The notes beneath the pieces were generated by a model. The model was not told the origin of the DNA, searched no databases, and worked only from the letters and a program-made list of their open reading frames with translations. Made by a program: the position numbers and the translations under genes. DNA of 64,000 bases from Eledone cirrhosa (taxonomy: Eukaryota), in contig OZ024740.1 of the NCBI GenBank assembly GCA_964016885.1, forward strand, positions 378,820,001 to 378,884,000. Direction: 5' to 3'. Numbering within the stretch: the stretch's first letter is position 1; each line of letters opens with the position of its first letter. Of the stretch, positions 2,290 through 63,418 are shown piece after piece.

Positions 2290-2719
2290 GATAATAATGG
2301 AGCTGCGGCGCTGCAAATGGGTTACATATGAAAAAGTTTGTCCTCATCAGTGGCCTTCCAACCATCGTAGGCATTTCGTCGCATTAAAGGCCATATACCT
2401 CAGGTTGGTGCGAGCAACGGCTAAAAAAAGTCGTTGGGACACGTAAATAAGGGGGACGCTAGGGTAAACAAACAAAATGGTTTAAGCAACAGAAAGTGAT
2501 TAAGAAGAAAGAAACAAGTCCCAGATTTCTATGAATATAAATTCGGTGGAATCGTGAACGAGAGAATAAAGACCATCAAACCTGGTGGAAATGTGAGCAA
2601 GGAAGGAATTTCGCACAGGTCTAACGGGAGGAAGAGGGGTCTGGTCTGCGAATTCGGTAAACATAAGTTCTGTGAAGTCGCAGACGAGAGAGAGAATAGA
2701 GAGAGAGAGAGAGAGAGAA

Positions 2720-2860: not shown

Positions 2861-3040
2861 TTGGCAGTATCGGTAGAGGGTCGGACGCCATGCTTTCCAG
2901 CATAGTTACGTCCCTTTACGATCTGAGTTCAAATCCCGCCGAGGTTGACTTTGCCTTTCATCCTTACGGGGTCGATAAAATAAAGTACCAGTAATGCACT
3001 GGGTAATTGCTGGCCTTGTGCCTAAAGTAGAAACAATTAT
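2861..3040 (+). mobile_element. tRNA-derived SINE with Nin-like central domain
   Basis: A box TGGCAGTATCGG, B box GAGTTCAAATC, core GCCTTTCATCCTTACGGGGTCGATAAA; many copies in the window. Confidence 0.85.
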
Positions 3041-6505: not shown

Positions 6506-6535
6506 ATACACACACACACACACACACACGCACAC

Positions 6536-10697
<4,162 letters not shown>

Positions 10698-10739
10698 GTA
10701 TGTGTATATATATGTATATATATGTATATATATAGAATA

Positions 10740-12840: not shown

Positions 12841-13074
12841 GTATATATGTATATATATATGTATATATATATGTATATACATATGTATATACATATGTAT
12901 ATACATATGTATATATGTGTATAAATATATATATATATGTGTATATATATATATGTATATATATATGTATATACATATGTATATACATATGTATATATGT
13001 GTATAAATATATATATATATGTGTATATATATATATATGTATATATATATGTATATACATATGTATATACATAT

Positions 13075-14154
13075 AGTGAAGAGTTTAGCGTAAAAGTCGG
13101 CGTCCATCAGGGCTCTGTTCTCAGTCCACTACTATTTATTATTGCCCTTCAGGCCATAACAGAGGAGTTCAAGACAGGCTGCCCATGGGAACTCCTATAC
13201 GCAGACGACCTGACACTCATAGCGGAATCAATGGCCGAGCTAGAGAAGAAATTCCAAACATGGAAGCACGGCCTAGAGTCAAAAGGACTTAAAATTAACC
13301 TGGCTAAGACCAAAGTACTAGTTTGTAGGAAAGAAAACAAGGCGGCGGTCCCTTCTGGGAAATGGTCGTGCTCGGTGTGTAGGAAAGGCGTAGGTAGAAA
13401 CTCCATTTTATGTCCTAAATGCAAAGTATGGGTGCATAAAAGATGTAGTGGGATCACAGGTAGGCTAACTAAGAACATAGATTTTACATGTGGCCGGTGC
13501 TCTGGTGCAATAAGTAGCAGCAAGTGCCCACAAACTACTAGCTCTTTCAATTGCGCAGAGGGTTCTATAGAAATAGTGGACAGCTTCCGTTACCTGGGCG
13601 ATAAAATCAGCAGTGGGGGAGGGTGCTCTGAAAGTACTGTAGCTAGAGTCAGAACTGGTTGGAAAAAGTTCAGAGAGCTTATACCACTATTAGCTGCTAA
13701 AGGGTTCTCACTAAAAATGAAAGGCAGGTTGTACGATGCCTGCATACGAACAGCAATGCTGCATGGCAGTGAGACCTGGGCATTGTGTGCAGAGGATATA
13801 CGCAGACTAGAGAGGAACGAAGCTTGCATGCTCCGCTGGATGTGTAACAGTAATATACGTGAACGGCAAAGCATAAACGAACTAAGGAATAAATTAGAGA
13901 TAAGAGGGATCAGATGTTGTTTACTCGAGAGAAGGCTACGTTGGTATGGACACGTGATGCGCATGAAAGTCGATAGCTGTATAACAAAGTGCAGGGCAAT
14001 AAAGATAGACGGTAGTCACGGAATAGGCAGACCTAGAAAAACCTGGGACGAGCTGATAAACTCCGACATCACACACTTACACCTCTCCAAGACAATGTCA
14101 CTGGACCGAGACCTTTGGCGGTACTCAGTAACAGAGAAGACCCGCCTTACCTAA
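13075..14154 (+). pseudogene. RTE RT C-terminal half with PHD-like zinc finger insertion
   Basis: [56 protein letters not shown]. The ORF-track N-terminus is microsatellite read-through. Confidence 0.9.
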
Positions 14155-21040: not shown

Positions 21041-24000
21041 TGATCGAACAACCCGACCTCCAGGAAACTAAAAGGTAAGTGTTCCCGCCTTTTTCTCTCC
21101 CTAACTATAAAAGCGACTATACAAGTTGGATGTTTGAATGTGCGTGGCCTCGGGATGTCCTGGAAACAGGGCCAATTTTTAAATACCTCAGGTCACACTG
21201 TATAGATGTGATAGCAATCACCGAGTCCAGGATTCACGACAAGCAGCAGTTAACCCCCATGTTTGATGACTTTGAGATTTACGCATCTCTCTGTCAGCGA
21301 GGAGGTGGAGGGGGAATTGCTGTTTTGTTTCGATAAAACCTGGATCTCAAAGTACAGACAATTTACTTGGCTCGGAGGGAAATTTGGTGGTCCTAGACGT
21401 GAATGGTAGTGAAAGTGGAGCTTTCAGACTGGTGGCCACATATGCCCCGACTGGGACATAGCAACCTGAGTTCTTTAAGCGTCTGGAGTTATTCCTGGGA
21501 ACGTCTCGCTCTTTACTGTTAGAGGGAGACTGGAATGGCATCTTAGACGCACGTTGGGATTATGTAGGAGTATCTGATAGCAGAGGGGATGTAATAGCCT
21601 AAAAACTCTTATCAGCCAATTCCAACTGGCTGATAGATATCGACTAGATTTCGCAAGTGCACCACTGTGGACGTGGAGCAACCGCACTGGGTCTTCTAGA
21701 TTATATTTAGATAGATTTCTAATTAGACAAAATGATAGGGAAACATTAAGCTATCCACAAATGCACATGGTTGCCTATTCAGACCACAAATTAGTGACCT
21801 GCATAGTCAACCTTGATAGAATACATAAACAGGGACCCGGATACTGGAAGCTAAACATGTCGCTACCGACACGTAAAGCCTACAGTATATGGATTAGCAC
21901 CTTAGTTAAACGCCAGTTGACGGGGGCCATTGTCAACAACACGTGGGAGTGCTCTCTCAGGAGAGCAATTAGAGTAGAATCAATAGCCTCTAGCAAGGAA
22001 TTAGCTTTAGAAAAGAACAAAACTGAAAAGGAACTGGTAGCCAAAGTAGGAGAGGCACTTACGAATGGCAGTACAGCTGACGTGTTAGTTGCGAGAACGG
22101 CACTAGAACAGTTCTTCAACGTGAAACACGAAGGTTGTATTGTCAGAAGTAGAACGTGTGCTCTGAGAAACGAGGGAGCCAAAGCTGTTCGCTGGGCCCG
22201 AGTGGCAGAGGCGAAAAGTGGCAACAAACCCACAATTCGGTCTTTGGAAAACCAAGACGGACGCATATTACTTGAATCCAAACAGATGTGTACGGCCTTC
22301 CACCAGCACTTTGCACAACTGTTCGGGCAGAGCAGTACGTCGAGTGGGGTGATGGACTTCAGTTCCTCCTTCGACGGCCTACCGCGACTCTCAAACACGT
22401 ATGCGGGGAGCTGCGAAAGGCCGATCACAGCGGACGAAATAAAAGACGCCTAGGCCGCTGTGGGAAACGCAAATCACCCGGTTTAGATTGTTTACCTATG
22501 AGTTTTATATAAGCATGCCAGACTTGTTCTCTGACCTCCTCGAAGCGATCTACTGCAACTGGCAACAGAACGGGAGGATTCCCAGTCCTGTAAGCAGAGG
22601 CGTAGTAACGTTGATCAGGAAAGATGAGGACAAAGGGAATAACATAAGTAACTTCAGACCCATAACTCTGATCAACACAGAGTTAAAGATTTTGGCCAAG
22701 GTGTTAACAACGAGGCTGGCGTTCGTCAACGAGAACCTGTTGGGGAAGCGCAAACGTGTGCAATCCCGGACAGGTCCATACACGACAACCTCCGCCTCAT
22801 GCGATACATGCAAAGCAGGCTTCGCTGGGGCTTTCCTCAATTTAGATCAATCTAAGGCATTTGATAGGGTCAACCATCAATACTTGGAAGCCGTTCTCAA
22901 GGCGGTCGGTTTCTGTCCCGTCTTCAGAGGCTGAATCGCTGCCATGCACAGCAACATCTGCTTGGCAGTCAAGGTGAATGGCTACCTGTCGGAGCCATTC
23001 CAAATCATGTGTTCCATCCGTCAAGGATGCCCTCTCTCCTCCGTTCTGTATGTACTGAGTTCCGAGCCACTACTGCGGAAACTGGAGTTATTGCAGGGTA
23101 TCCCGATCGAACCAGGACTGCGAAAAACAGTGTCGGCCTACGCCGACGACGTGACCGTCATTGTGTCGAAAACCTCGGAAATCGGGGTAATCAGCAACTT
23201 ATTACAGGAATACGAAACATTGACAGGAGCCGGACTAAACCTGAACAAGTCTGTCGGTTTGCAACTCGGCACATAGAGAGGCAAACCTATGCCGTCCGAC
23301 AGTGTCGCTGGACGCTGGGCGTAAGGACCGGGGAAATTGCTCGGGGTCTGGTTTCCAAGACTTCCAGGTGGACAAAAACTGGAACGAGGTTACGGCGAAG
23401 GTGTTTGCACTCACCCAGAAGTGGGCTGAGTGCAAACTCTTCTTAAAAGGTATAGCAGAGGTGGCGAACACTTACATAGCGTCCGTCATCTACTACTGCT
23501 TGACAGTCATGCCTGGTCCCTGCGATCACCTCAGCAAAATGGAACGTCTTCTCTTGAAGTTCGTTTGGAAGAAACAGGCTCCGTTGGTGAAAAGATCCAT
23601 CTGCTGCAAACACCCTTCTAGCAGAGGGCTAGGCATGCCGTGGCTGATGATGCGCAAACACGCGCTGAGGTTACGCCATCTCCAGGTGTTCCTGACCGGT
23701 GAACCGGTGTGGTTGTCGTTTGTGAGACGATCTCCCACACAACTCGTCTCACTAACAGAGTTGCAGTCCTGGGTGAAGCGAAGACCGAAAATGGGCGCCT
23801 GGCACCTCGAGTGCCTTCAGGTGCTCACCGTTTCTACCAAACGGAAACGGCAATCAGCGGAGACTCCACGTCGACATTCTATAGGGGATTAGTGGAGGAT
23901 AAGTGCGACGACGTTCTCCGGGAAACTCTAGGAATCGAAAAGGACGAACTGGCCAGTCTGTTCGGGAGGACTTTCCGTCCAGGGCCTATGGATAACTTCC

Positions 24001-24384
24001 AGAGGTCTCTGGCCTTGCAGTGCTACCGAAGAGCTCTACCAGTTCGAGACAAAATCTACAGACACGGACGCTCTCGCAGGGATCCTGCCAAAAGGACCTG
24101 TCCAAGATGCGAGCAGGACATTGAAACCATTCTGTGCCCAGAAGTGACCGACCTGTGGAATTACGTCAAACAGTTACTGTCATTTGTGGGACGCATCTAG
24201 TTGTCAGCCGAGTCCATCGCGGGGATCACCTCGCCACCTTCATTTAAGAATGAAGGAGAGACGGTTTTCCTCTGTCTGGTGGCTATGGCGAAAGAGGTAA
24301 TATGGTAGACGAGGTTAAAAGGACTGAGGGCAATCACGTCTTGTAATGTCCCATTTCTTGTACGCCTTTGTGGCAAATAAAGAA
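21041..24384 (+). mobile_element. 5'-truncated Tx1/L1-like LINE (APE-RT ORF2, pseudogenised) with (ATCT)n tail
   Basis: SDHKLV, GPGYWKLN, FRPITLIN, LDQSKAFDRV, IRQGCPLS, AYADD; AATAAA then (ATCT)n. Confidence 0.9.
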
Positions 24385-41624: not shown

Positions 41625-42495
41625 GATAACGTGAGGCCGCCTGTGGGACGTGGGACCGGCTGGGACTTAGCCCAGTAGACGTCCCTCCTCCTTCCCATGC
41701 TGATGTCAAGTCCCCCCAACGCACTTGGGATGCCATCCAGTGCAGACTGGCCTCAGACAGGCTCACGCGCCAGCTCGACCAACACCGCCTTGCTTGTTTT
41801 CGTGCGGCCTCCAAACCCCACAGTGGTGCCTGGCTCCATGCTCTGCCCTCCTTCTCCACTAGCACGCAGCTAGACAACCATAGCCTGCGAATCGGCGTTT
41901 CCCTGAGGCTCGGCCTCCGGATCTGCCAGCCACACCAATGTCGCTGCGGTTCCGCCGTGGACTCTTTCGGCCTCCACCTGCTTTCCTGTCGCCACAGTGC
42001 CGGCCGCATTCCACGCCATACTGCCCTCAACGAGGTCATTAAGCATAGCTTGGACGCTGCAGGCTTCCCTTCCCAGCTCGAGCCGGTGGGGATGGATCGA
42101 GGGGACGGCAAAAGGCCAGATGGCATGACCATCTTCCCGTTCCGCGGTGGCAAACCCCTCGTCTGGGATGCCACTTGCACCGACACGTTCTGCAGCCGCA
42201 ACCTGGTGCAGTCTGCGACTGACTCAGGTTCTGCTGCACGTCGGGCTGAGGGGACCAAACTCCTCAAATACCGGTCGCTCTCCGACAGGTTTGCGGTCGT
42301 TCCCCTGGCAGTGGAAACTTCTGGTGTCCTCGGCTCCAGGGCTACCTCCTTACTCAACACCATAGGCGTTGAGCTGGCCAACCGCAGGTGTGAGCCTCGC
42401 GAGTTGGAGTGGCTTTTCCAGCGCGTCTCCCTTGCCGTCCTCCGGGGAAACGCCTTCTCCATTCTGTCCGCCGGGGCTGTGGGTGGGCCCCATCG
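41625..42495 (+). mobile_element. CRE-like RLE non-LTR retrotransposon 3' fragment
   Basis: GAWLHALP, CRCG..HLLSC knuckle, RH..LN, KRPDG..WD.T..D, AE..KLLKY, PLAVETSG.LG. Confidence 0.85.
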
Positions 42496-42867
42496 CGTAC
42501 CAATACATTAGTTAAATACCATTCTTTCATCGATGTTAAATAGTAAAATACCAGTAGCGATTAGAAACAACTAAAAATAATACTTACCTTCCAGAATTGG
42601 TTCTAGTATACCACTCTCATACAAACGGGAATGTATAAACAAACATAAATAATATGATTGTCTGATTCATAAACAGGAAATTAGGCCAGCATTATAATAT
42701 ACCTATAAAAAGAGCTGAAACAAGTACATACCGCAAACTTCTCAAAGAATAACAAAGGGACCGTTTTCTGGGATATATGGGTTCACACAGACAGAAATTA
42801 GACTAAAACACACAGACACAATTGTTTCCCAATCGACTGATCATTTCTAACCCTTCAAGAAAAAAAG

Positions 42868-46433: not shown

Positions 46434-46911
46434 TGGATTAAAATAAAAAATTATTTCAATGATATTATACCATAAATCAGCTTAAATATGCTTTATGTAG
46501 GCTAAAAATCTTTATTTTGCAGAGCATTATTTATTCAAAATTTTATTTCGGTACAATACTAAAGTATATTACTATTAAGAACATAGCAAGTAAAAACTCT
46601 ATTTAAGGAAAAATATAATTTTATCTGCATAATTGCACAGGCCGCGGTTTCGCCTTGATTACAAATTTAGCTAATTAGCATAATTGATTAGCCAATCAAG
46701 ACTAACATGTCTCTTCAGTAAATTAGTCTTAGGATTTACTAATTAACACACACACACGTGTATATATATATTTATAGCACTATCACCAACCCAATCAGCC
46801 TGCCACTGCTGCTGTCATATGCTGACTGATTAGCAATTAATGCCACACTTAAGATACCGTTATCGACGAGAAAATTTAGTAGTGGGGTCAACACTCGGAA
46901 TTCCCCTTTAT

Positions 46912-47017
46912 GGTTTGCTGAAGAGGATATTGCTCCAGGATTTGCTCATCATTGATTTATTATTAATCGATGGCTAGCGGATCCCCTCCTGGGTCCGAAA
47001 CAGTTACTGTACAGGCC
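46912..47017 (+). ncRNA. Type I hammerhead with long stem II insertion
   Basis: GGUUUG-CUGAAGA-GGA..(about 66 nt)..UCC-GAAA-CAG uua CUG-UA-CAGGCC. Confidence 0.8.
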
Positions 47018-47430: not shown

Positions 47431-47448
47431 TGTATATATGTATATATA

Positions 47449-47756
47449 CAATATATTAATAAATGGAAACTATATTTACAAAACCATAATTATTTTATTA
47501 TATATATTTCAAGAGCAACCAAGGCAAATTTTGGTGCGCTTTCATCAGATAAAATACACATTTGTTTTATAAATATTGACATACCCGCATAAAGACAACC
47601 TTAACGGTTGAGGTTCGCTGGGTAGTCAATATTTATAAAACAAATTTGTATTTTATCTGATGAAAGCGCACCAAAATTTGCCTTGGTTGTCCTTGAAATA
47701 TATATAATGAAATATTGATGGTTTTATAAATATAGTTTCCATTTATAAATATATTG
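47449..47756. repeat. Fold-back pLTR with hammerheads on both strands
   Basis: 47449-47580 pairs with 47625-47756. Confidence 0.85.
47649..47714 (+). ncRNA. Type I hammerhead motif
   Basis: UAUUUUAU-CUGAUGA-AAG..CUU-GAAA-UAUAUA-UA-AUGAAAUA. Confidence 0.8.
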
Positions 47757-48077
47757 AATATTTACTCCACTAAATTGTTGAGTGCTTTATATCAGTTATA
47801 AAAATGTTTAAGCTTATTGAATCCCAACAAATTAAATATAACCTCTGCATATATGTATATATATCTATGTATATGCATGTATATGTAATAATAATATATT
47901 TGAAGACTAAAATCCAAAGAGGGCTCGATAAGGATAAATATATATCAAATATATAAGAACCGTGCCTGTATATATATATATGTGTGTATATAAATATATA
48001 TATATGTATATATATATGTATATATATATATTAGGTATATATATATATGTATATATATGCATATATATATATGTATA

Positions 48078-48585: not shown

Positions 48586-50143
48586 TATTTATTAAAATAA
48601 CAGATTAAAGTTTAAGCAAAGAATCGCTGCTTTCACCCTTAACGGGATTTTCTGAAACTAACAAAGTCAATCTGTAAACGCAGAACTGGATATTTCAAAA
48701 AACGTTGCAACCGGAGGAAGACAGGAAGACGATACTTTGGTTCGTGGTAACGTTCGCTGGCAAAGAACGGGAAAAAACGAATAATACTTCATTAATAGGA
48801 GCGGTGAAAAACAATTACGCGCAAAGACAAAACCACGTTTATGGTATAAAAGAGGTCGTAGACTAATGTTCTCTTAGGTGGTGCATAGAGACGTTCTCTG
48901 GCAATGAACGAAAAAACGAAGATAATAAGTCATATGTGGAGCGTGGAGAACAATAGCACGCAAAGACAAAACCACGTAAATGGTATAGCAGAAATCGTAG
49001 ACTAAAATTCTAACTAGGAGACCAAATGAATCTCCGCTACAGAGTTAAGAACAAAGTAAATAAATACAATACAGAAGTAATAGAAACAAATAAATACATA
49101 CACGCGAACAGATACGTACATACACAAGCATACGCAAAACCTTACCATGGGTATACAAAACCACGCACATATAAATATGTGTGTGTGTATGCTTGTGTAC
49201 AAATAAATAAATAATTATATAAACGTATATAAGTAAATAAATACGTATATAACAAGCGCACACGCATACCTACATATAAATACACGAATGTTCGGAGACG
49301 TAAGTCAACTAAAACAAGAAGTACACATATACACACACCCACCATACGTACGAACCTGCACACTCACGCGGACGCAAAACTCCCGTATACACATAGCCAA
49401 ACCCTAAATACCAAAATATGTAATTTACGTCTCCGAACATTCGTGTATTTATATGTAGGTATGCGTGTGCGCTTGTTATATACGTATTTATTTACTTATA
49501 TACGTTTATATAATTATTTATTTATTTGTACACAAGCATACACACACACACACATATTTATATGTGCGTGGTTTTGTATACCCATGGTAAGGTTTTGCGT
49601 ATGCTTGTGTATGTACGTATCTGTTCGCGTGTATGTATTTATTTGTTTCTATTACTTCTGTATTGTATTTATTTACTTTGTTCTTAACTCTGTAGCGGAG
49701 ATTCATTTGGTCTCCTAGTTAGAATTTTAGTCTACGATTTCTGCTATACCATTTACGTGGTTTTGTCTTTGCGTGCTATTGTTCTCCACGCTCCACATAT
49801 GACTTATTATCTTCGTTTTTTCGTTCATTGCCAGAGAACGTCTCTATGCACCACCTAAGAGAACATTAGTCTACGACCTCTTTTATACCATAAACGTGGT
49901 TTTGTCTTTGCGCGTAATTGTTTTTCACCGCTCCTATTAATGACGTATTATTCGTTTTTTCCCGTTCTTTGCCAGCGAACGTTACCACGAACCAAAGTAT
50001 CGTCTTCCTGTCTTCCTCCGGTTGCAACGTTTTTTGAAATATCCAGTTCTGCGTTTACAGATTGACTTTGTTAGTTTCAGAAGATCCCGTTAAGGGTGAA
50101 AGCACCGATTCTCTGCTTAAACTTTAATCTGTTATTTTAATAA

Positions 50144-50146
<3 letters not shown>
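48586..50146. repeat. About 720-bp near-perfect inverted repeat (pLTR-like) with ~120-bp spacer
   Basis: 48586-49304 pairs with 49425-50146; hammerhead-like AGUUU-CAGAAGA-UCCC..GGGU-GAAA-GCA..UGC-UU-AAACU near 50073-50123. Confidence 0.92.
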
Positions 50147-50249: not shown

Positions 50250-50600
50250 AATTAAGTTAAAGATGTACATCCATATATGTATACTGAAATACTAGTATGT
50301 ATATGAATACACACACGTATACATATGTAGATGTACCAAGTTTTTTCCCTGGTCACTTTACTGTGAGTGGCCAGCTATTCTGTATGTAAACACACAGACA
50401 AACCGGTTTTTAGAGTCATACTGGTTTTTGAGGAAACACCTTTCCTCTATTCTCCAGAAAGCCAGACAAGGAATAGCTGGCCACTCACAGTAAAGTGACC
50501 AGGGAAAAAACTTGGTACATCTACATATGTATACGTGTGTGTATTCATATACATACTAGTATTTCAGTATACATATATGGATGTACATCTTTAACTTGAT

Positions 50601-50601
<1 letters not shown>
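50250..50601. repeat. About 130-bp inverted repeat
   Basis: 50250-50380 pairs with 50471-50601; no clear hammerhead core. Confidence 0.9.
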
Positions 50602-50639
<38 letters not shown>

Positions 50640-50650
50640 GTATATATATA

Positions 50651-51270
50651 TATTCATTAGTTAAGCAAAAACAAGACCACAAATTTCACAAGGAAGACAT
50701 TATTAAAAGATTGTCAACATAGTTTTAGTTTAATGTAAGGAATGTAGAGAATAATAATAATATTAATAATGTCCGTTTACAATTGTCTCGCTACGCCATA
50801 TAATGTTTCTGGATCAAATGATTATAGATCATTATTGATCTGGTTCAGTTGAAGATAGGTAAAACTGGAGAACTTAGGTAAAATTGGAGCAGCTCATCGG
50901 AACTTCAAAAGGAATATATTGGTACTTCACTATGAAGTTCCGATGAGATGCTCCAATTTTACCTAAGTTAATTATCTACAAATGAACCAGATCAATAATG
51001 GTCTATAATCATTTGATCCTGAAACATTATATGGAGTAGCGAAACAATTGTAAGCGGACATTATTAATATTATTATAAGGGCAGTGGATTGGCAGTATCA
51101 GTAGAGGGTCGGACGCCATGCTTTGACGCAAAGAGTTACGTCCCTTTACGATCTGAGTTCAAATCCCGCCGAGATTAACTTTGCCTTTCATCCTTACGGG
51201 GTCGATAAAATAAAGTACCAGTAATGTACTGGGTAATTGCTGGCCTTGTGCCACAAGTAGAAACAATTAA

Positions 51271-51633: not shown

Positions 51634-52645
51634 GTATATATATTAGAAAGTGAGGTTTTTTTTACAAAATGAAAAATAACCGAGGTGTCCTACACGAGTG
51701 AAAGTATAAAGAAAAAGGGATGAAATCGAAAATGCAACTGAAGTCTTTTTTTTTTTTTTTTTTTTTTGTAAATATATATATTTATTTGGTTCCTTTACCG
51801 GTTTCGCAGTTCTTCTGCTTTTCAAAAGGTGAGTTGAGATGGAGGGTCTGTGGTTTTTCTCACATCTGCGGAAGCTTACAACACTATTCACAATAACATC
51901 CCACTACTAAAACAAAACCCAAGAATGAAAAAAGCCCTTGAAACACACAAAATAATCAAAAGCAAAAGACAACCAAAATCACTGAAAACATTACTCACCA
52001 ATGCCAAATTACCTACCACAAACCCACAACCAAGTATCAAAAATGTGGTCGCTCTAATTGTGGAACCTGCACTCACCTCATTGAAGGCAACACGTATACA
52101 TTTAAATCAGGACAAAATTTTACTGTAAAAAATCACTTCACTTGCTCATCAAAAAATCTAATTTATGCCATTAAATGTAAAGGATGCAATGAAGATTATA
52201 TGGGACAAACTAAACTCACACTCAGAAACAGAATGACAGTTCATCGCCAACAATTACGAGATCCAACCACGAGACAGATACCACTAAGTGCACATCTAGA
52301 CATTTGCGCAAGTAATAAGACACCCAAATTCCAAGTCTTCCCATTTTACCTTTGCGCTAACAATACAACAGAACAAATGCGAATAAATAAGGAAAATATG
52401 TTTATTCAAAAATATAGACCAACATTAAATAAGGTTTAATATACATTATGTCAACACCACAATATGACATACACACACACACACATAACACCTTCTACTT
52501 TAGAAAATAAAAACCCGAACTAAATAAACCTTAACATACGTTTGCACTGGCAATACAACAGCAAACACGAAAAAGTAAGGAAAATATGTTCATTCAAAAA
52601 TATTCCTACTAAAGGAATCACTTTCCTACACACACACATACACAC

Positions 52646-57509: not shown

Positions 57510-57516
<7 letters not shown>

Positions 57517-58165
57517 GAGAAGAAGAATACTGCGTGGTTGCACATGGGTTACATATGATAAAAATAGTCCTTCGTCAGTGATTTTCCAACCATCATTGGT
57601 ATTTCATCGCATTAAAAATCATATACCTCAGGTTGGTGCGAGCAATAACTAAAAAAAGTTATTGGGACCAGTAAATCGCGTAAAGCGAGGGGGACAAGTG
57701 AACAACATAGAAAGATAAAAGCAAACCAAAGAAAGGAAAAAAACAAGCAACATGGTTGTCCTTGTCTGCATAATCTGGGTGGATTTCATGAGCGAAAGGT
57801 ACAGACGTCCGACGTGAGTGAGATGTAAGCAAGAAAGAAGAGACCCACTGTAAGCCAAACGGGAGGAAGTGAGAAGGGGAGAAACAGAGAGTGAGTGAGT
57901 GGAAGTGCGAGGAAGAGATCAGTCGAGACAAAGTGTAACTGACAAAGGGGGCGAAAGAAGTTGAGAGAAACAGAGAGAACGGGGAAGCAGTAAGAGAGAA
58001 ACAGACAAACGCAGCCGAGGTAAATATATATTAAAAACATGAGAAGAAAGAAGAATACTGCGTGGTTGCACATGGGTTACATATGATAAAAATAGTCCTT
58101 CGTCAGTGATTTTCCAACCATCATTGGTATTTCATCGCATTAAAAATCATATACCTCAGGTTGGT
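57510..58165 (-). mobile_element. Retrozyme/pLTR-like non-coding unit: 528-bp period plus ~130-bp terminal direct repeat
   Basis: 57510-57637 repeats at about 58033-58165; the repeat carries the permuted hammerhead-like motif; abuts (TA)n. Confidence 0.85.
57571..57636 (-). ncRNA. Candidate permuted hammerhead-like ribozyme with K-turn, variant B (identical copy 58099-58164)
   Basis: CCAACC-UGA-GGUAU-A-UGAUUUU-UAAUGCGAU-GAA-AUACC-AAU-GAU-GGUUGG-AAAAUCA-CUGACGA-A. Confidence 0.7.
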
Positions 58166-58624: not shown

Positions 58625-61233
58625 ATAGGCGCATGGTCAGAGTAGGCCCATTCACACGAGCCATTCTCGTCACATTCACCCACCTTTTAGCAAATGTACT
58701 GGGGGCAGCACTTCTCTCTCCACCCTCACCTTCCTTTCCAGGTGAAACTTGAAGAAGTTGATGAGGGATTGGCCGAAGAGAAAAGTGTCTGTCTTCAGTC
58801 CTTTTAACCTGGTCCACCATATAACCTCTTTCGCAACTGACACCAGACAGAGGAAAATTTCCTGCTCTTCCTGACCTAAGGAAGGCGGTGGGTCGATCAT
58901 CACTATGGACTCGGCCGATAGCCGGATTCGTTCCACACGCGACAGTAGCTGTTCGACATAACTCCACAAGTCAGTAATGCACGGACATTGGACAAGTGCG
59001 TGCAGAACGGTTTCGTCGTTCTGTGCGCATCTTGGGCAGGTCCGTCTGACAGCACTTCCGTGCTTGTAGAATTTATCCCGAACCGGCAGTGCCCCCTGGT
59101 AGCACTGCCAAGCGAGGGATTTCTGGAAATTTTCCATCGTCCCCGGCTCAAAAGTTCTCCCGTACAGACTGGTCAGTTCGACTTCGTTGAGGCCCAAAGC
59201 TTCTCCGAGTGCGTCATCGCACTTGCCCACCACTAATCCTCTATAGAACTCAAGAGTGGAAGTTCCACTGATCGCATTGCCCGCTTGGTAGAGGGCACTG
59301 AGTGCCTGGCAACATTCCAGGTGCCAGTCACCCAGTCTCGGTCTCTTCTTGTCTCAGGACTGCAGCTCAGTCAAAGAAATGAGCTGCGGAAAGGCCCGTC
59401 TGATAAACGGCGACCACACCTGTTCACCGTTGAGGCAGAATATCTGGAGATGTCGCAGCCTCAACGCATGTCTGCGCATCATTAGCCATGGCATGCCCAG
59501 CCCTCCGCTTAGAGGGTGCTGGCAGCAGATGGACCGCCTCACCAACGGAACTTGTCCTCTCCACAAGAATTTGAAGAGGAGCCGTTCCAACTTGACGAGG
59601 CGCGGACGAAGGCAAGGCACGACGGTCAGGCGGTAGTAGATGACGGACGCGATGTACGCATTCGCCACCTCCGCGCGACCTTTCAGTGATAGCTTCCTCC
59701 CAGCCCATTTTTGGGTGAGATTGGCTACTCTGCTCGTTACCTCATCCCAATTCTTTTCCACCTTGAGGTCTGGTCCGCACAAAACCCCGAGCAACTTTAC
59801 CGGTCCATCCGTCCAGCGCCCCACGACGCTGTTGGACGGCATGGGTTGCCTCTCCAGGTTCCGAGCTGCAAGCCCACCGACTTTTCCGGGTTAAGTTTGG
59901 CTCCTGTCAACCTTTCATATTCCTTCTATAAGGTGCCGACCACCTTGATTTCTGAGGTGTTCGACACCATCACGGTGATGTCGTCCGCATAAGCCGACAC
60001 CGCCTTTCCACGCCTTGCCCGAACAACCGAGCAAAGTGCTGGCGAAAGGCCTCACATATCCGCTTGGAATCGTTTATCTCGTGTCCGTCTCGGTCCGCCA
60101 CAGACCGAATTGTGGTTTTATTACCACGCTGCGCCTCCGCCACCTGGGCCCATCGAACAGCTTTGGTTCCCTCGTTTCTCAGCGCACGCGCCTTAGCTCT
60201 GACAATGCAGCCTTCGTGTTTCGCATTGAAGAAATGGTCTAATGCCATTCTCGCCGCTAGCACGTCAGTTGCAATGCCACTACAAATGGCCTCGTCTAAC
60301 TTATCTACCAGCTCCCCCTCCTTTCTATTTTTCTCTAACGCTATTTCTTTGCTGAACTCTATCGAAGTTACTCTAATATCTCTGTTGAGAGCCCCCCACC
60401 ATCTGTTGTTGATGATCCCCCCTGTCAACTTTTGCTTAACTAAATTGTTGACTCGGTCCCTGTAAGCCTTACGTGCCGGAAATGTTCAGCTTCCAGTAAC
60501 CCGGTCCTAACCTACGCGTTTTATCTAGGTCGACCGTACAGATCACAAATTTGTGATCTGAATAGGCGACCGTTTTAAAAAGTGGGCAGCCCACACTATT
60601 TCTATCTATTTTCCTAATGAAGATCCTGTCTATATACGATCTAGATGACCCCATTCGGTTGGTCCATGTCCATACTGGCACATTGGGTAAATCTAGTCGA
60701 TACCTGTCAGACAGTTGGAACTGGCTGAGTAGGTGCTTGAGGCTTTTGCAGCCCCCGCTCCTATCGGCTACTCCCACACAATCCCAGCGTGCGTCTAAGA
60801 TGCCATTCCAGTCCCCCGCTAACAGTAAAGGGCGAGACGTACCCAGAAAGGTCTCCAGGCGCCTAAAGAAGTTCGGTCGTCCGGCCCCTGTAGGGGCGTA
60901 GACGGCCAGCAGTCTAAAGGCACCACCTTTTGCTACTGCTCACATGCAAGACCACCAACTTACCGTCCGGGTCCCGGAAGATCGACCTTACCTCGAGATC
61001 CAGTCCTTTCCTAAACAGCACTGCCACCCCACCCCCATTCCCGGTCTGCTAACAGATGCGAAGATCTGATAGTCGTCGAAAATAGGAGCTAGTGCGCGCG
61101 TATCGGAAATTCTGGTCTCGCTGACGGCAATCACATCCATTTCCAGCGACCTGAGGTCATTGAGCAGGCGACCCTGCTTGCAGGGTGACCCCAGGCCGCG
61201 AACATTTAAACTTCCTACTCATAATATGGCCAT
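58625..61233 (-). pseudogene. Tx1-like ORF2 (APE endonuclease, RT mostly deleted)
   Basis: Starts MAIL*VGSLNVRG; jumps from FARLFGQ to AVSAYADD near 60015. Confidence 0.85.
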
Positions 61234-61262
61234 ATTGGTAAGCTAAGAGAGAGAGGGAAGGT

Positions 61263-63418
61263 TTACTTACCTCCCGGAGTCTTGTGAAGGTCGGGTGGTT
61301 CGACCTCCATGGTTAATGGGGTTTCTTTTGGGAACCCCTTTAAAAGTCTTGATGTGGGTTTCACATTCGGGGTTCCCACGTCTTGAGGAAAGCTCTCTCG
61401 AATTTCTTTGAAGCAATTGAGTGACATTCGGACCAGAAGCAAATCTTCTGGCACGCAAAATGTGCATTTCAAAAATCTCCCCCTCTGTTTGAATGTCCTC
61501 GCTTCGTGCTAAGAGTGCCATCAGTTTATCGTTGGCCCTTCTGACAAGCACGAAGTTTTTAACATTTTGTTGGTGTGGTTTTATTTGTTTTCGTTTTGGT
61601 GACTGTGGTGGTGATGGTTTTGGTGGTGTTGTTTCGGGTATGTCTGTGTTTGTTGTAGGTGTGGTATCTGCAATTTCAGGTATTTGTGTGTTTATTTGTA
61701 CTTGTGTTTGTCTAGGTTGTTTGCGTTTCGGGGATTGTGGAGGTGGTGTCGTTGTTGCTGTTGGTGATGATGTTATTGGGGAAGTGTTTGCGTTAGTGGT
61801 GTCTGTATTTTTTGTTGTGTATGTTTTTGTGTTTTGTTGGGGCTTTTTTTTTGTGAGTTTTCTCTGTTTTTTTGCACTTTGGGGTTTTCCTTCATCTTCG
61901 CTGCTGGAAGACAAAGGGGTCTGTGGCTGTGAGTGTCTCTGTGTCTGTGTGTGCGTTTATTGTTTTGTCTATGTGTATAATTGGGGGTGGGGGGTGGGAG
62001 AGCTTTCCTCGTTTTCCCCTTGGATTGGTTTTGGTGTTGGTGGTGATCCGGCTGTTTTTGATGTTGGTGTCCGTGTTTTTGTTGGTGTTGTTTTTGGTGG
62101 TGGTGGTGCAGCTTTCCGGGCTGACACTGGCGTTGGCAACAAAGGAGGTTTGCGACCCCCTGCATTTTTGCGCTGAGGGCAGAAGGCTTGCAGATGCGTT
62201 GCTTCCCCGCAGACGAAGCAGCGTGGCCTCCTTCCGTCAATGATTAGTTGGATTGTTGTCCCGTCCTGAAGGCGGGCAAAATCCGGGATGTTGTTCATGT
62301 CCTCCGGTTTCATTTGGAGAAGAATCTCCAAATCCATTCCGGACCAGTCCTCTCTCTCTGTCCTTTTGATATCCAGGATGGTAGTGTCTGTCCCCTCCTC
62401 GATTACGCATCCCAGCAGCCACCATATGTTCATTCTTGGTGGGATGCTGGGAATGCGGACCTTTACTGTCCTTTTACCCATGTAGGACGGATGCATGATA
62501 ATGCGTTCCGTTCTGCAGGGGGTCACCGAGTGCTTAATAGCGAGGGCCTCGGTTTTGAACAGTACCGAGATGGTACCGAACTGTTTACCTCTTACTTTAT
62601 ACTCTATGATACTTCCGATGCACTCAAAAGCAGCCTCGACCTCTGCTTGGCTGGCAAATTCCACTTTTCGTGTCCGCACCGAAATGCATCGAAAGTACAC
62701 CGTCCTCCTTTGCATGGCCGCTATTGCCTCGTCCGGGATGGTCAGGTTTGCCCAGGACTTCTCCCGTTTAATTAGCCTCCACGCTTGGGCCAACTGTTCG
62801 TTTTTATCGCTAATATCAATATCAATATTCAATAAGCGCTTTGTTTTTGCTGCTGCTGCAGCAAATGTGGTGTTTCTGATGCTCTTGTTGTTGGTGTTGT
62901 CATTCTTGCTGTTGTTATTGGGCGGTGGATTGGCAGTATCGGTAGAGAGTCAGACACCATGCTTTCCAGCATAGTTACGTCCCTTTACGATCTGAGTTCA
63001 AATCCCGCCGAGGTTGACTTTGCCTTTCATCCTTACGGGGTCGATAAAATAAAGTACCAGTAATGCACTGGTTATTTGCTGGCCTTGTGCCTAAAGTAGA
63101 AACAGTTATTGGTGTTGTTGTTGTTGTTTTGTTTGTTGATGCTGTTGCCACCGCCATCCGTGTTTACATTGAAGCTGTCGGTGTTATTGTCGTTATTGCT
63201 CTGAGTTGTTGTTGTTGTTGTGGTGGTAGTGGTGGTGGTGGCGGTGATGTCGTTTTCAGATGATACTGCTGCTATCACAGAAGGTTGTGATGGTAACTTT
63301 TTAGTTTTGCCTTCACATTCATGACTGTAGCCGTCGTAGTCATGGTGAAATCTGCAGTGGCTGCCTTTAAACTTTTGACCTGAACGTTGTTTACCGTTTC
63401 AAGGTCGAAAATTCCCAT
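61263..63418 (-). pseudogene. Tx1-like ORF1 (zinc-knuckle protein), frameshifted and SINE-interrupted
   Basis: GRRPRCFVCGEATHLQAFCP in the 61969-62832 ORF; Pro/Thr/Lys-rich tail in 61267-61914. Confidence 0.8.
62922..63104 (+). mobile_element. tRNA/Nin-like SINE inserted in Tx1 ORF1
   Basis: Family consensus; GTTATTGG duplication on both sides. Confidence 0.9.

Follow-up and report, generated by a model that had tools for sequence, protein, structure and literature searches.

What does a stretch of cephalopod DNA encode when it holds, in two diverged versions, the conserved blocks of a hammerhead ribozyme in permuted order? The locus lies in Eledone cirrhosa (GCA_964016885.1, contig OZ024740.1, positions 378,820,001 to 378,884,000), and the 64,000 nt that we analysed are referred to here as the window. 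The two sequences point to a folded RNA that bears the hammerhead catalytic bases in a knotted, non-circular order and likely cuts retroelement RNA.

The segments at 2343-2436 and 57571-57664, both on the minus strand, align at 81.6% over 147 nt and represent two subfamilies (A and B) of one RNA fold, as a first-pass annotation of the window had suggested. The differences it described were recovered. Stem I reads UGAUUUU/AAAAUCA in the copy at 57571-57664 and UGGCCUU/AAGGCCA in that at 2343-2436 (three double changes), position 15.3 in stem III passes from U-A to U.G (AUACC to AUGCC), the base N7 is C in one copy and U in the other, the K-turn bulge is AAU or UAC, and a hairpin in the 5' leader differs by two double changes and one A.C mismatch. 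The predicted cut was likewise placed correctly, after AUA between 2394 and 2393, and the downstream UCAUAUGUAACC is found in both copies. The span of 2343-2436 marks a real copy but is too short for the fold, in which helix P0 pairs 2441-2437 with 2342-2339. A third copy, truncated at its 5' side, was found at 58058-58165 (minus). When a descriptor of all six block permutations was run on both strands of the window, these three copies were the only SGC matches; a single CGS match at 46911-47017 (+) is probably due to chance. The features are collected in Table 1.

Table 1. Predicted features of the two subfamilies, in window coordinates.
Feature	Position	Strand	Remarks
Predicted ribozyme of subfamily A, full extent: type-SGC hammerhead, K-turn brace, split stem II	2339..2441	-	
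P0 5' strand	2437..2441	-	partner 2342-2339, just after CUGAUGA-G; G-C/A-U covariation across subfamilies; present in centroid fold
Leader hairpin, third arm of the four-way junction	2415..2436	-	96.9% of cells paired; double changes in 5/8 pairs
P2 5' strand	2409..2413	-	partner 2383-2379; takes the place of most of stem II
K-turn NC (non-canonical) stem 5' strand and UGA (3n, 2n, 1n)	2400..2408	-	pairs with 2363-2358
Block S: 3' strand of stem III, A17 (2394), cut predicted at 2394/2393, 5' strand of stem I	2387..2399	-	
Block G: P2 3' strand, C11.1 at 2378, GAAA at 2377-2374, stem III 5' strand	2370..2383	-	
K-turn bulge, tandem GA, NC stem 3' strand	2358..2369	-	
Block C: 3' strand of stem I, CUGAUGA (2350-2344), G10.1 (2343)	2343..2357	-	
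CAUAU, where tail-less copies end, with the ~40-nt tail and then (AT)n	2290..2330	-	
5'-truncated copy of the family A ~622-nt non-coding unit	2290..2696	-	
Predicted ribozyme of subfamily B, cut predicted at 57622/57621	57567..57669	-	nested part z -3.04
Family B array: one ~528-nt unit and, upstream, a partial one, whose ribozyme copy at 58058-58165 has no leader	57511..58165	-	

Residues are numbered by the hammerhead convention. Read on the minus strand, the cleavage block (a stem III strand, AUA and a stem I strand) is followed by the GAAA block and then by the CUGAnGA block, giving the order S-G-C. All parts of the hammerhead core, CUGAnGA, GAAA and an NUH cleavage triplet, are present at a three-stem junction. 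Position 17 follows the NUH rule: over 163 copies it is A in 125, C in 33, G in three and U in two. A pattern that left CUGAnGA free returned 15,846 matches in the genome, and by eye 95 of the first 100 listed retain this block; the other five carry one core change each, all different and none recurrent. With Rfam covariance models for types I-III, no hammerhead family appeared among the 150 listed of 248 matches, nor among the matches listed in two further Rfam scans.

The motif is abundant in the 3.0-Gb genome. Three mutually exclusive core patterns (15,582, 1,526 and 174 matches) gave 17,282 matches against 4 with the reversed patterns, and an additional pattern for a stem III variant gave 251 against 2. 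DNA searches with the two versions yielded 2428 and 1385 candidates; 40 were scored in each, and these best 40 places are 99-100% identical. More than ten subfamilies are present.

Beyond stems I and III, the predicted fold contains four further helices: the NC stem of a K-turn, P2, P0 and the leader hairpin. Stem III is extended through the K-turn, with a 3-nt bulge, GA/GA and a six-pair NC stem. P2 joins the strand preceding GAAA to the 5' leader and P0 joins the strand following CUGAnGA to a further leader segment, with the hairpin between them. Stem II proper is thereby a single pair, 10.1-11.1, and both strands beyond it have other partners. Covariation is seen in stems I and III, the K-turn brace, the leader hairpin, P0 and P2. 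In alignment A2, whose 21 representatives were hand-picked from copies pre-filtered for pairing (174 of 212 contexts), 87.1% of cells are paired, double changes occur in 18 of 24 pairs and the covariation score is 0.585, compared with 0.233 for shuffled and 0.07-0.14 for slid controls. P0 and the leader hairpin, aligned over 16 sequences, are 90.9% paired with double changes in 7 of 13 pairs.

Could this covariation be an artefact, produced by the common descent of the subfamilies and by search patterns that force the motif to be present? The subfamilies are related (67-98% unit identity between families, 76% between A and B), the GAAA, GA and CUGAnGA elements are set by the patterns, and the mutual information is weak when copies are not filtered for pairing. 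A filter on homology only kept 185 of 212 contexts, which fall into 66 clusters, mostly singletons and many of them decayed or truncated; here the signal is weaker, each predicted pair being kept in just 32-54 of the 66 clusters and four of the 24 predicted pairs standing in the top 33 of 2278 (ranks 3, 4, 21 and 33). However, pairing was demanded by no pattern. In an out-of-sample scan of metagenomes that fixed only the unpaired bases and the spacing, 10 matches were found, and seven of these form every helix with different letters (P2 5/5, NC stem 6/6, stem III 5/5, stem I 5-6/7) while three do not; five of the seven come from one assembly. Two families of genomic retrotransposons of the RLE type, described below, also pair in every helix, and the slid controls lie near background. 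Such an artefact is very improbable and is already contradicted by the metagenome matches. Alignment A4, made of six of the seven metagenome matches and the two window copies (L297 was omitted, its motif being identical to that of L295), has 93.8% of cells paired and double changes in 16 of 24 pairs. P2, paired in 79% of A2 cells, is paired in 100% of those in A4, with double changes in three of its five pairs. Nested folding supports copy B (z -3.04) and does not produce the ribozyme helices in copy A (z -1.07); pseudoknots are outside its reach. Selection on an RNA structure across at least two subfamilies, as the first-pass annotation had proposed, is thus strongly supported, with covariation that spans more than ten subfamilies and unrelated retroelements.

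The 10.1-11.1 pair had been noted as a change from A-U to G-C, beside a 1-nt indel that made the alignment ambiguous. Across the genome the pair indeed covaries (A-U, U-A, G-C and G.U; rank 3 of 2278 in the homology-only set), yet it is absent in five of the six aligned metagenome copies. It is paired in 81% of A2 cells as against 37.5% of A4 cells, and in most metagenome copies of A4 residue 11.1 is able to pair with a leader base instead. Stem II would therefore comprise 0-1 bp and open into a four-way junction, an opening that the published six-permutation scheme assumes to be impossible (Eckert et al. 2023, PMC10085705). One older family (L203-L230, 70-80% identity among copies) is without the leader hairpin and would form a three-way junction.

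A K-turn consists of a C-stem, a 3-nt bulge, tandem G.A/A.G pairs and an NC stem. These sequence rules hold in the braced copies: A1n, which was not set by the search pattern, is present in 21 of 21 and G2n in 18 of 21, and the NC stem is 92% paired; G1b and A2b were set by the pattern. In a family comprising L243 and L241, the G.A pairs are replaced by Watson-Crick pairs flanking the 3-nt bulge, giving a plain bulged helix.

Type SGC was described as a non-circular permutation, with in vitro cleavage rates of 0.007-0.19 per minute, that is reported from metatranscriptomes only and from no known organism's genome (Eckert et al. 2023, PMC10085705). The window motif shares with the published HRIMA-1/SGC ribozymes the S-G-C order, all core bases, pseudoknotted stems, a short linker that connects stem I with the strand preceding GAAA and an extra base after CUGAUGA. 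The published ribozymes have a full, multi-pair stem II, which is necessary for cutting, together with a 3' helix that links stem I to stem II, whereas the window motif has P0, P2 and the K-turn brace instead, its stem II being split into P0 and P2 by the 5' leader. The former are environmental only; the latter are genomic animal repeats. By block order the window motif is a predicted SGC hammerhead and would work like that type, but its layout is not that of HRIMA-1.

An alternative inactive conformer, in which the downstream segment pairs over the cleavage site, had also been suggested, and this did not hold up. The duplex is no better than in shuffled sequences and its pairing probability is low (at most 0.05 in family A and 0 in family B, in which the segment makes its own hairpin). 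For family A, pairing of the cleavage block with the 40 nt downstream reaches -7.6 kcal/mol against -7.5 in shuffles, 46% of which equal it; for family B the values are -7.9 and -5.2 kcal/mol and 8% of shuffles equal it, which is marginal. None of 16 clusters tested fell under 5% of shuffles. The C17 subfamilies retain CAUAUG despite loss of the conformer pairing, and CAUAU is the position at which tail-less copies end.

We then considered the repeats that carry the motif. Full units are 470-672 nt long and non-coding, with the ribozyme near a fixed 3' end. Among 84 loci sampled by pattern, 28 have a same-strand (tandem) neighbour, 25 an inverted copy and 72 an (AT)n tract within 110 nt. The inverted pairs (n = 24) combine one tailed and one tail-less end in 18 cases and equal ends in four; two were left without assignment. 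Tandem and inverted copies, a tail at one end, a microsatellite target and the absence of an ORF are marks of a non-autonomous Penelope-like element (PLE), and such marks characterise PLEs in published surveys (Craig et al. 2021, PMC8557442; Frangieh et al. 2024). At about +65 after the core, units such as L017 and L031 contain a TATA-like AUAUAU and a pyrimidine tract where tailed copies end, a possible promoter and target mimic. These non-coding repeats with Penelope-type insertion marks probably carry, near the 3' end, a non-circular SGC hammerhead-type RNA that would cut the RNA of the repeat once per unit.

Animal non-LTR retrozymes are likewise non-coding tandem units with one hammerhead each and are proposed PLE derivatives (Cervera and de la Pena 2020, PMC7229834; Li et al. 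2026 preprint 10.64898/2026.07.22.740005). They differ in being type I by definition, mostly 170-400 nt long and demonstrated as circular RNA; the units here are SGC, 470-670 nt long and known from DNA. The type I hammerhead that defines a non-LTR retrozyme is thus replaced here by the order SGC. The type I minimal hammerheads of PLE pseudo-LTRs resemble the window motif in their position near the 3' end, a U3-A8 variant and an extra base 5' of stem II, but are circular permutations with a long stem II and a weak stem III that needs dimers (Cervera and de la Pena 2014, PMC4209133). Here stem III has 5-6 bp and is extended, so that a monomer could fold.

In the mechanism that we propose, the K-turn would bend the extension of stem III so that it returns to the distal ends of stems I and II, and might in this way substitute for the usual contact between loops I and II. 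Cutting after AUA (2394/2393) would release unit-length RNA from tandem transcripts, which, by analogy with retrozymes, may be circularised. A Penelope-class RT-endonuclease would nick (TA)n and start copying 55-70 nt past the core, and such copying could generate the tandem, inverted and 5'-truncated copies. Among 125 5' ends there was no sharp pile-up on the predicted cut: one lies exactly on it, 19 fall within -16..+4 and 48 in the following 140 nt (Poisson p 1e-4). Given just one end exactly on the cut, this enrichment is weak and could be due to RT stalling. Most copies continue through the predicted cut, which means that a circular or uncut template would be required.

These features also bear on whether the fold, although real, is weakly or no longer catalytic, its core being kept for shape in a structure for protein recognition or packaging at the retroelement 3' end. 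A stem II of 0-1 bp, the read-through of the predicted cut in most copies, a location adjoining the RT start and the poor in vitro cutting of metazoan PLE hammerheads (PMC4209133) would all fit such a role. Yet all core bases, the NUH rule and a C3-G8 to U3-A8 exchange are kept across unrelated retroelements, read-through is explicable by circular or uncut templates, and nematode relatives in the Naiad group of PLEs have, by eye, a complete three-stem core in the order CSG (PMC8557442 supplement). We regard the non-catalytic role as unlikely and are reasonably confident that the predicted ribozyme is active.

A search for coding partners gave mostly negative results. No coding element was found joined to the young units. 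L095 and L127 were examined as coding partners and rejected as nested insertions; L095 (1700-1900) and L127 (1000-1150) contain a different PLE family, flanked by (TA)n, whose classical type I hammerhead has a short stem III; SGC units often insert beside this family. Among 30 GIY-YIG loci there were no SGC matches that would link the motif to PLEs with a C-terminal endonuclease, and 20 longer PLE loci gave two (L188 and L189), both of the young non-coding type and amounting to no consistent PLE link. The window itself includes an intact 877-aa PLE frame at 7173-9806 (+), containing RVT_1 and, at its C-terminus, a GIY-YIG domain, and with inverted flanking copies at 6506-7185 and 10037-10717; the six-permutation descriptor found no hammerhead in this frame or its flanks. 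Also in the window are a Neptune-like GIY-YIG endonuclease fragment (51942-52439, +), fragments of other non-LTR retrotransposons with RT and endonuclease-like frames (12925-14154, 21581-24200, 41630-42511 and 58676-62949), a dispersed SINE-like repeat of ~185 nt (2861-3040 and about a dozen further places) and long fold-back (inverted) repeats within (TA)n arrays (47440-47765, 48586-50146 and 50250-51076).

Four of the metagenome matches (L294, L296, L297 and L299) occupy the 3' end of elements that encode an RT and an RLE-type endonuclease, which we take to belong to the HERO clade. Their relatives occur in fish, mussel and amphioxus as RVT_1 proteins that are encoded by a single ORF and reach ~1200 aa, the closest in the PDB being R2 proteins; Pfam returned nothing for the L297 fragment. 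In the E. cirrhosa genome, 33 of the 34 best RLE-type relatives fetched, in two families (L305-L338), have the five-helix SGC module right behind the ORF, and none of six R4-like copies does. Viral contigs gave no match for the motif, and a set of genome contigs gave one (L304), in which stems are absent by eye. R2 elements are reported to use a ribozyme at the 5' end, whereas the module here is at the 3' end. The R2 ribozyme is of HDV-like type.

An active SGC ribozyme could also have reached the young units from RLE-type, HERO-like elements that also move them, rather than from the Penelope class. The exact spacing of subfamilies A and B and their UAA linker are matched by the metagenome copies at RT-RLE 3' ends, and the genomic frequency of the module in such elements points the same way. 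Against this, PLEs are marked by tandem and inverted arrangement, by tailed and tail-less ends and by (TA)n targets, (AT)n follows only six of 18 RLE 3' ends, units and RLE 3' ends have no clear common sequence (best E 0.001), and the leader hairpin resembles that of the octopus element Naiad_Ovul. We consider an RLE origin quite improbable and favour a Penelope-class one.

Naiads are reported to be without canonical hammerheads, some being marked HHR_core or half_core (Craig et al. 2021, PMC8557442). They are coding elements, whereas the window units encode no protein, but they share with them (TA)n targets, tandem and inverted copies, a tail and, by eye, parts of the octopus 3' end. In the supplement to that paper, the 3' ends of the Naiad_Ovul and Naiad_Obim consensus sequences show by eye the SGC parts, a K-turn and the leader hairpin loop as in the window motif, and the Naiad_Esco consensus has the SGC order. 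Nematode ends (Naiad-2_Nbra, Naiad-3_Nbra, the preceding entry and one more) appear by eye to be CSG with a full stem II.

In the E. cirrhosa genome, Naiad-like RT remnants are numerous but decayed (142 matches), the label being assigned by eye against the published consensus with Pfam blank for these fragments; a Naiad RT motif pattern gave no match and a second motif three decayed copies. Fourteen of 40 fetched remnants (L254-L292 region) have a homologous S-G-C motif in sense orientation in the 3' UTR, with UUGAnAA in nine, CUGAUGA in two and otherwise altered in three. The UUGAnAA copies represent the C3-G8 to U3-A8 core covariation, a natural one in PLE hammerheads (PMC4209133). A K-turn-type profile found a single match in the Naiad-like 3' regions, an inserted unit; the remnant motif is not of K-turn type. 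The young units showed no sequence match to the Naiad-like 3' UTRs of the genome, in which we found no intact autonomous partner sharing the unit terminus; the unit resembles the published Naiad_Ovul end. Most likely, the module came from a Naiad 3' UTR. As the young families are near-identical and the Naiad-like copies decayed, another (TA)n-targeting PLE may move the young units now; intact PLE frames, such as that at 7173-9806, are present.

In the literature covered, which lay mostly outside subscription papers and repeat-database notes, we found no report of an SGC hammerhead in a genome, of a hammerhead with a K-turn, or of any hammerhead at the 3' ends of Naiad or RLE elements. We lean, by a narrow measure, towards a broader view: non-circular hammerheads would be a regular but overlooked 3' feature of two unrelated animal retroelement groups, Naiad PLEs (SGC in cephalopods and CSG in nematodes) and HERO-like RLE elements (SGC); the K-turn-braced form, its stem II split into a four-way junction, would be an active wiring outside the six permutations considered possible. 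The non-circular order would explain why descriptor searches called Naiads hammerhead-free, and if the view is right that claim falls and a high-copy class of retrozymes is defined. A natural ribozyme braced by a K-turn might be switched by proteins of the L7Ae family, and RLE-type elements, which interest gene-insertion work, likely have a ribozyme at their 3' end. A genomic, high-copy form borne by retroelements gives SGC hammerheads a host and a testable function.
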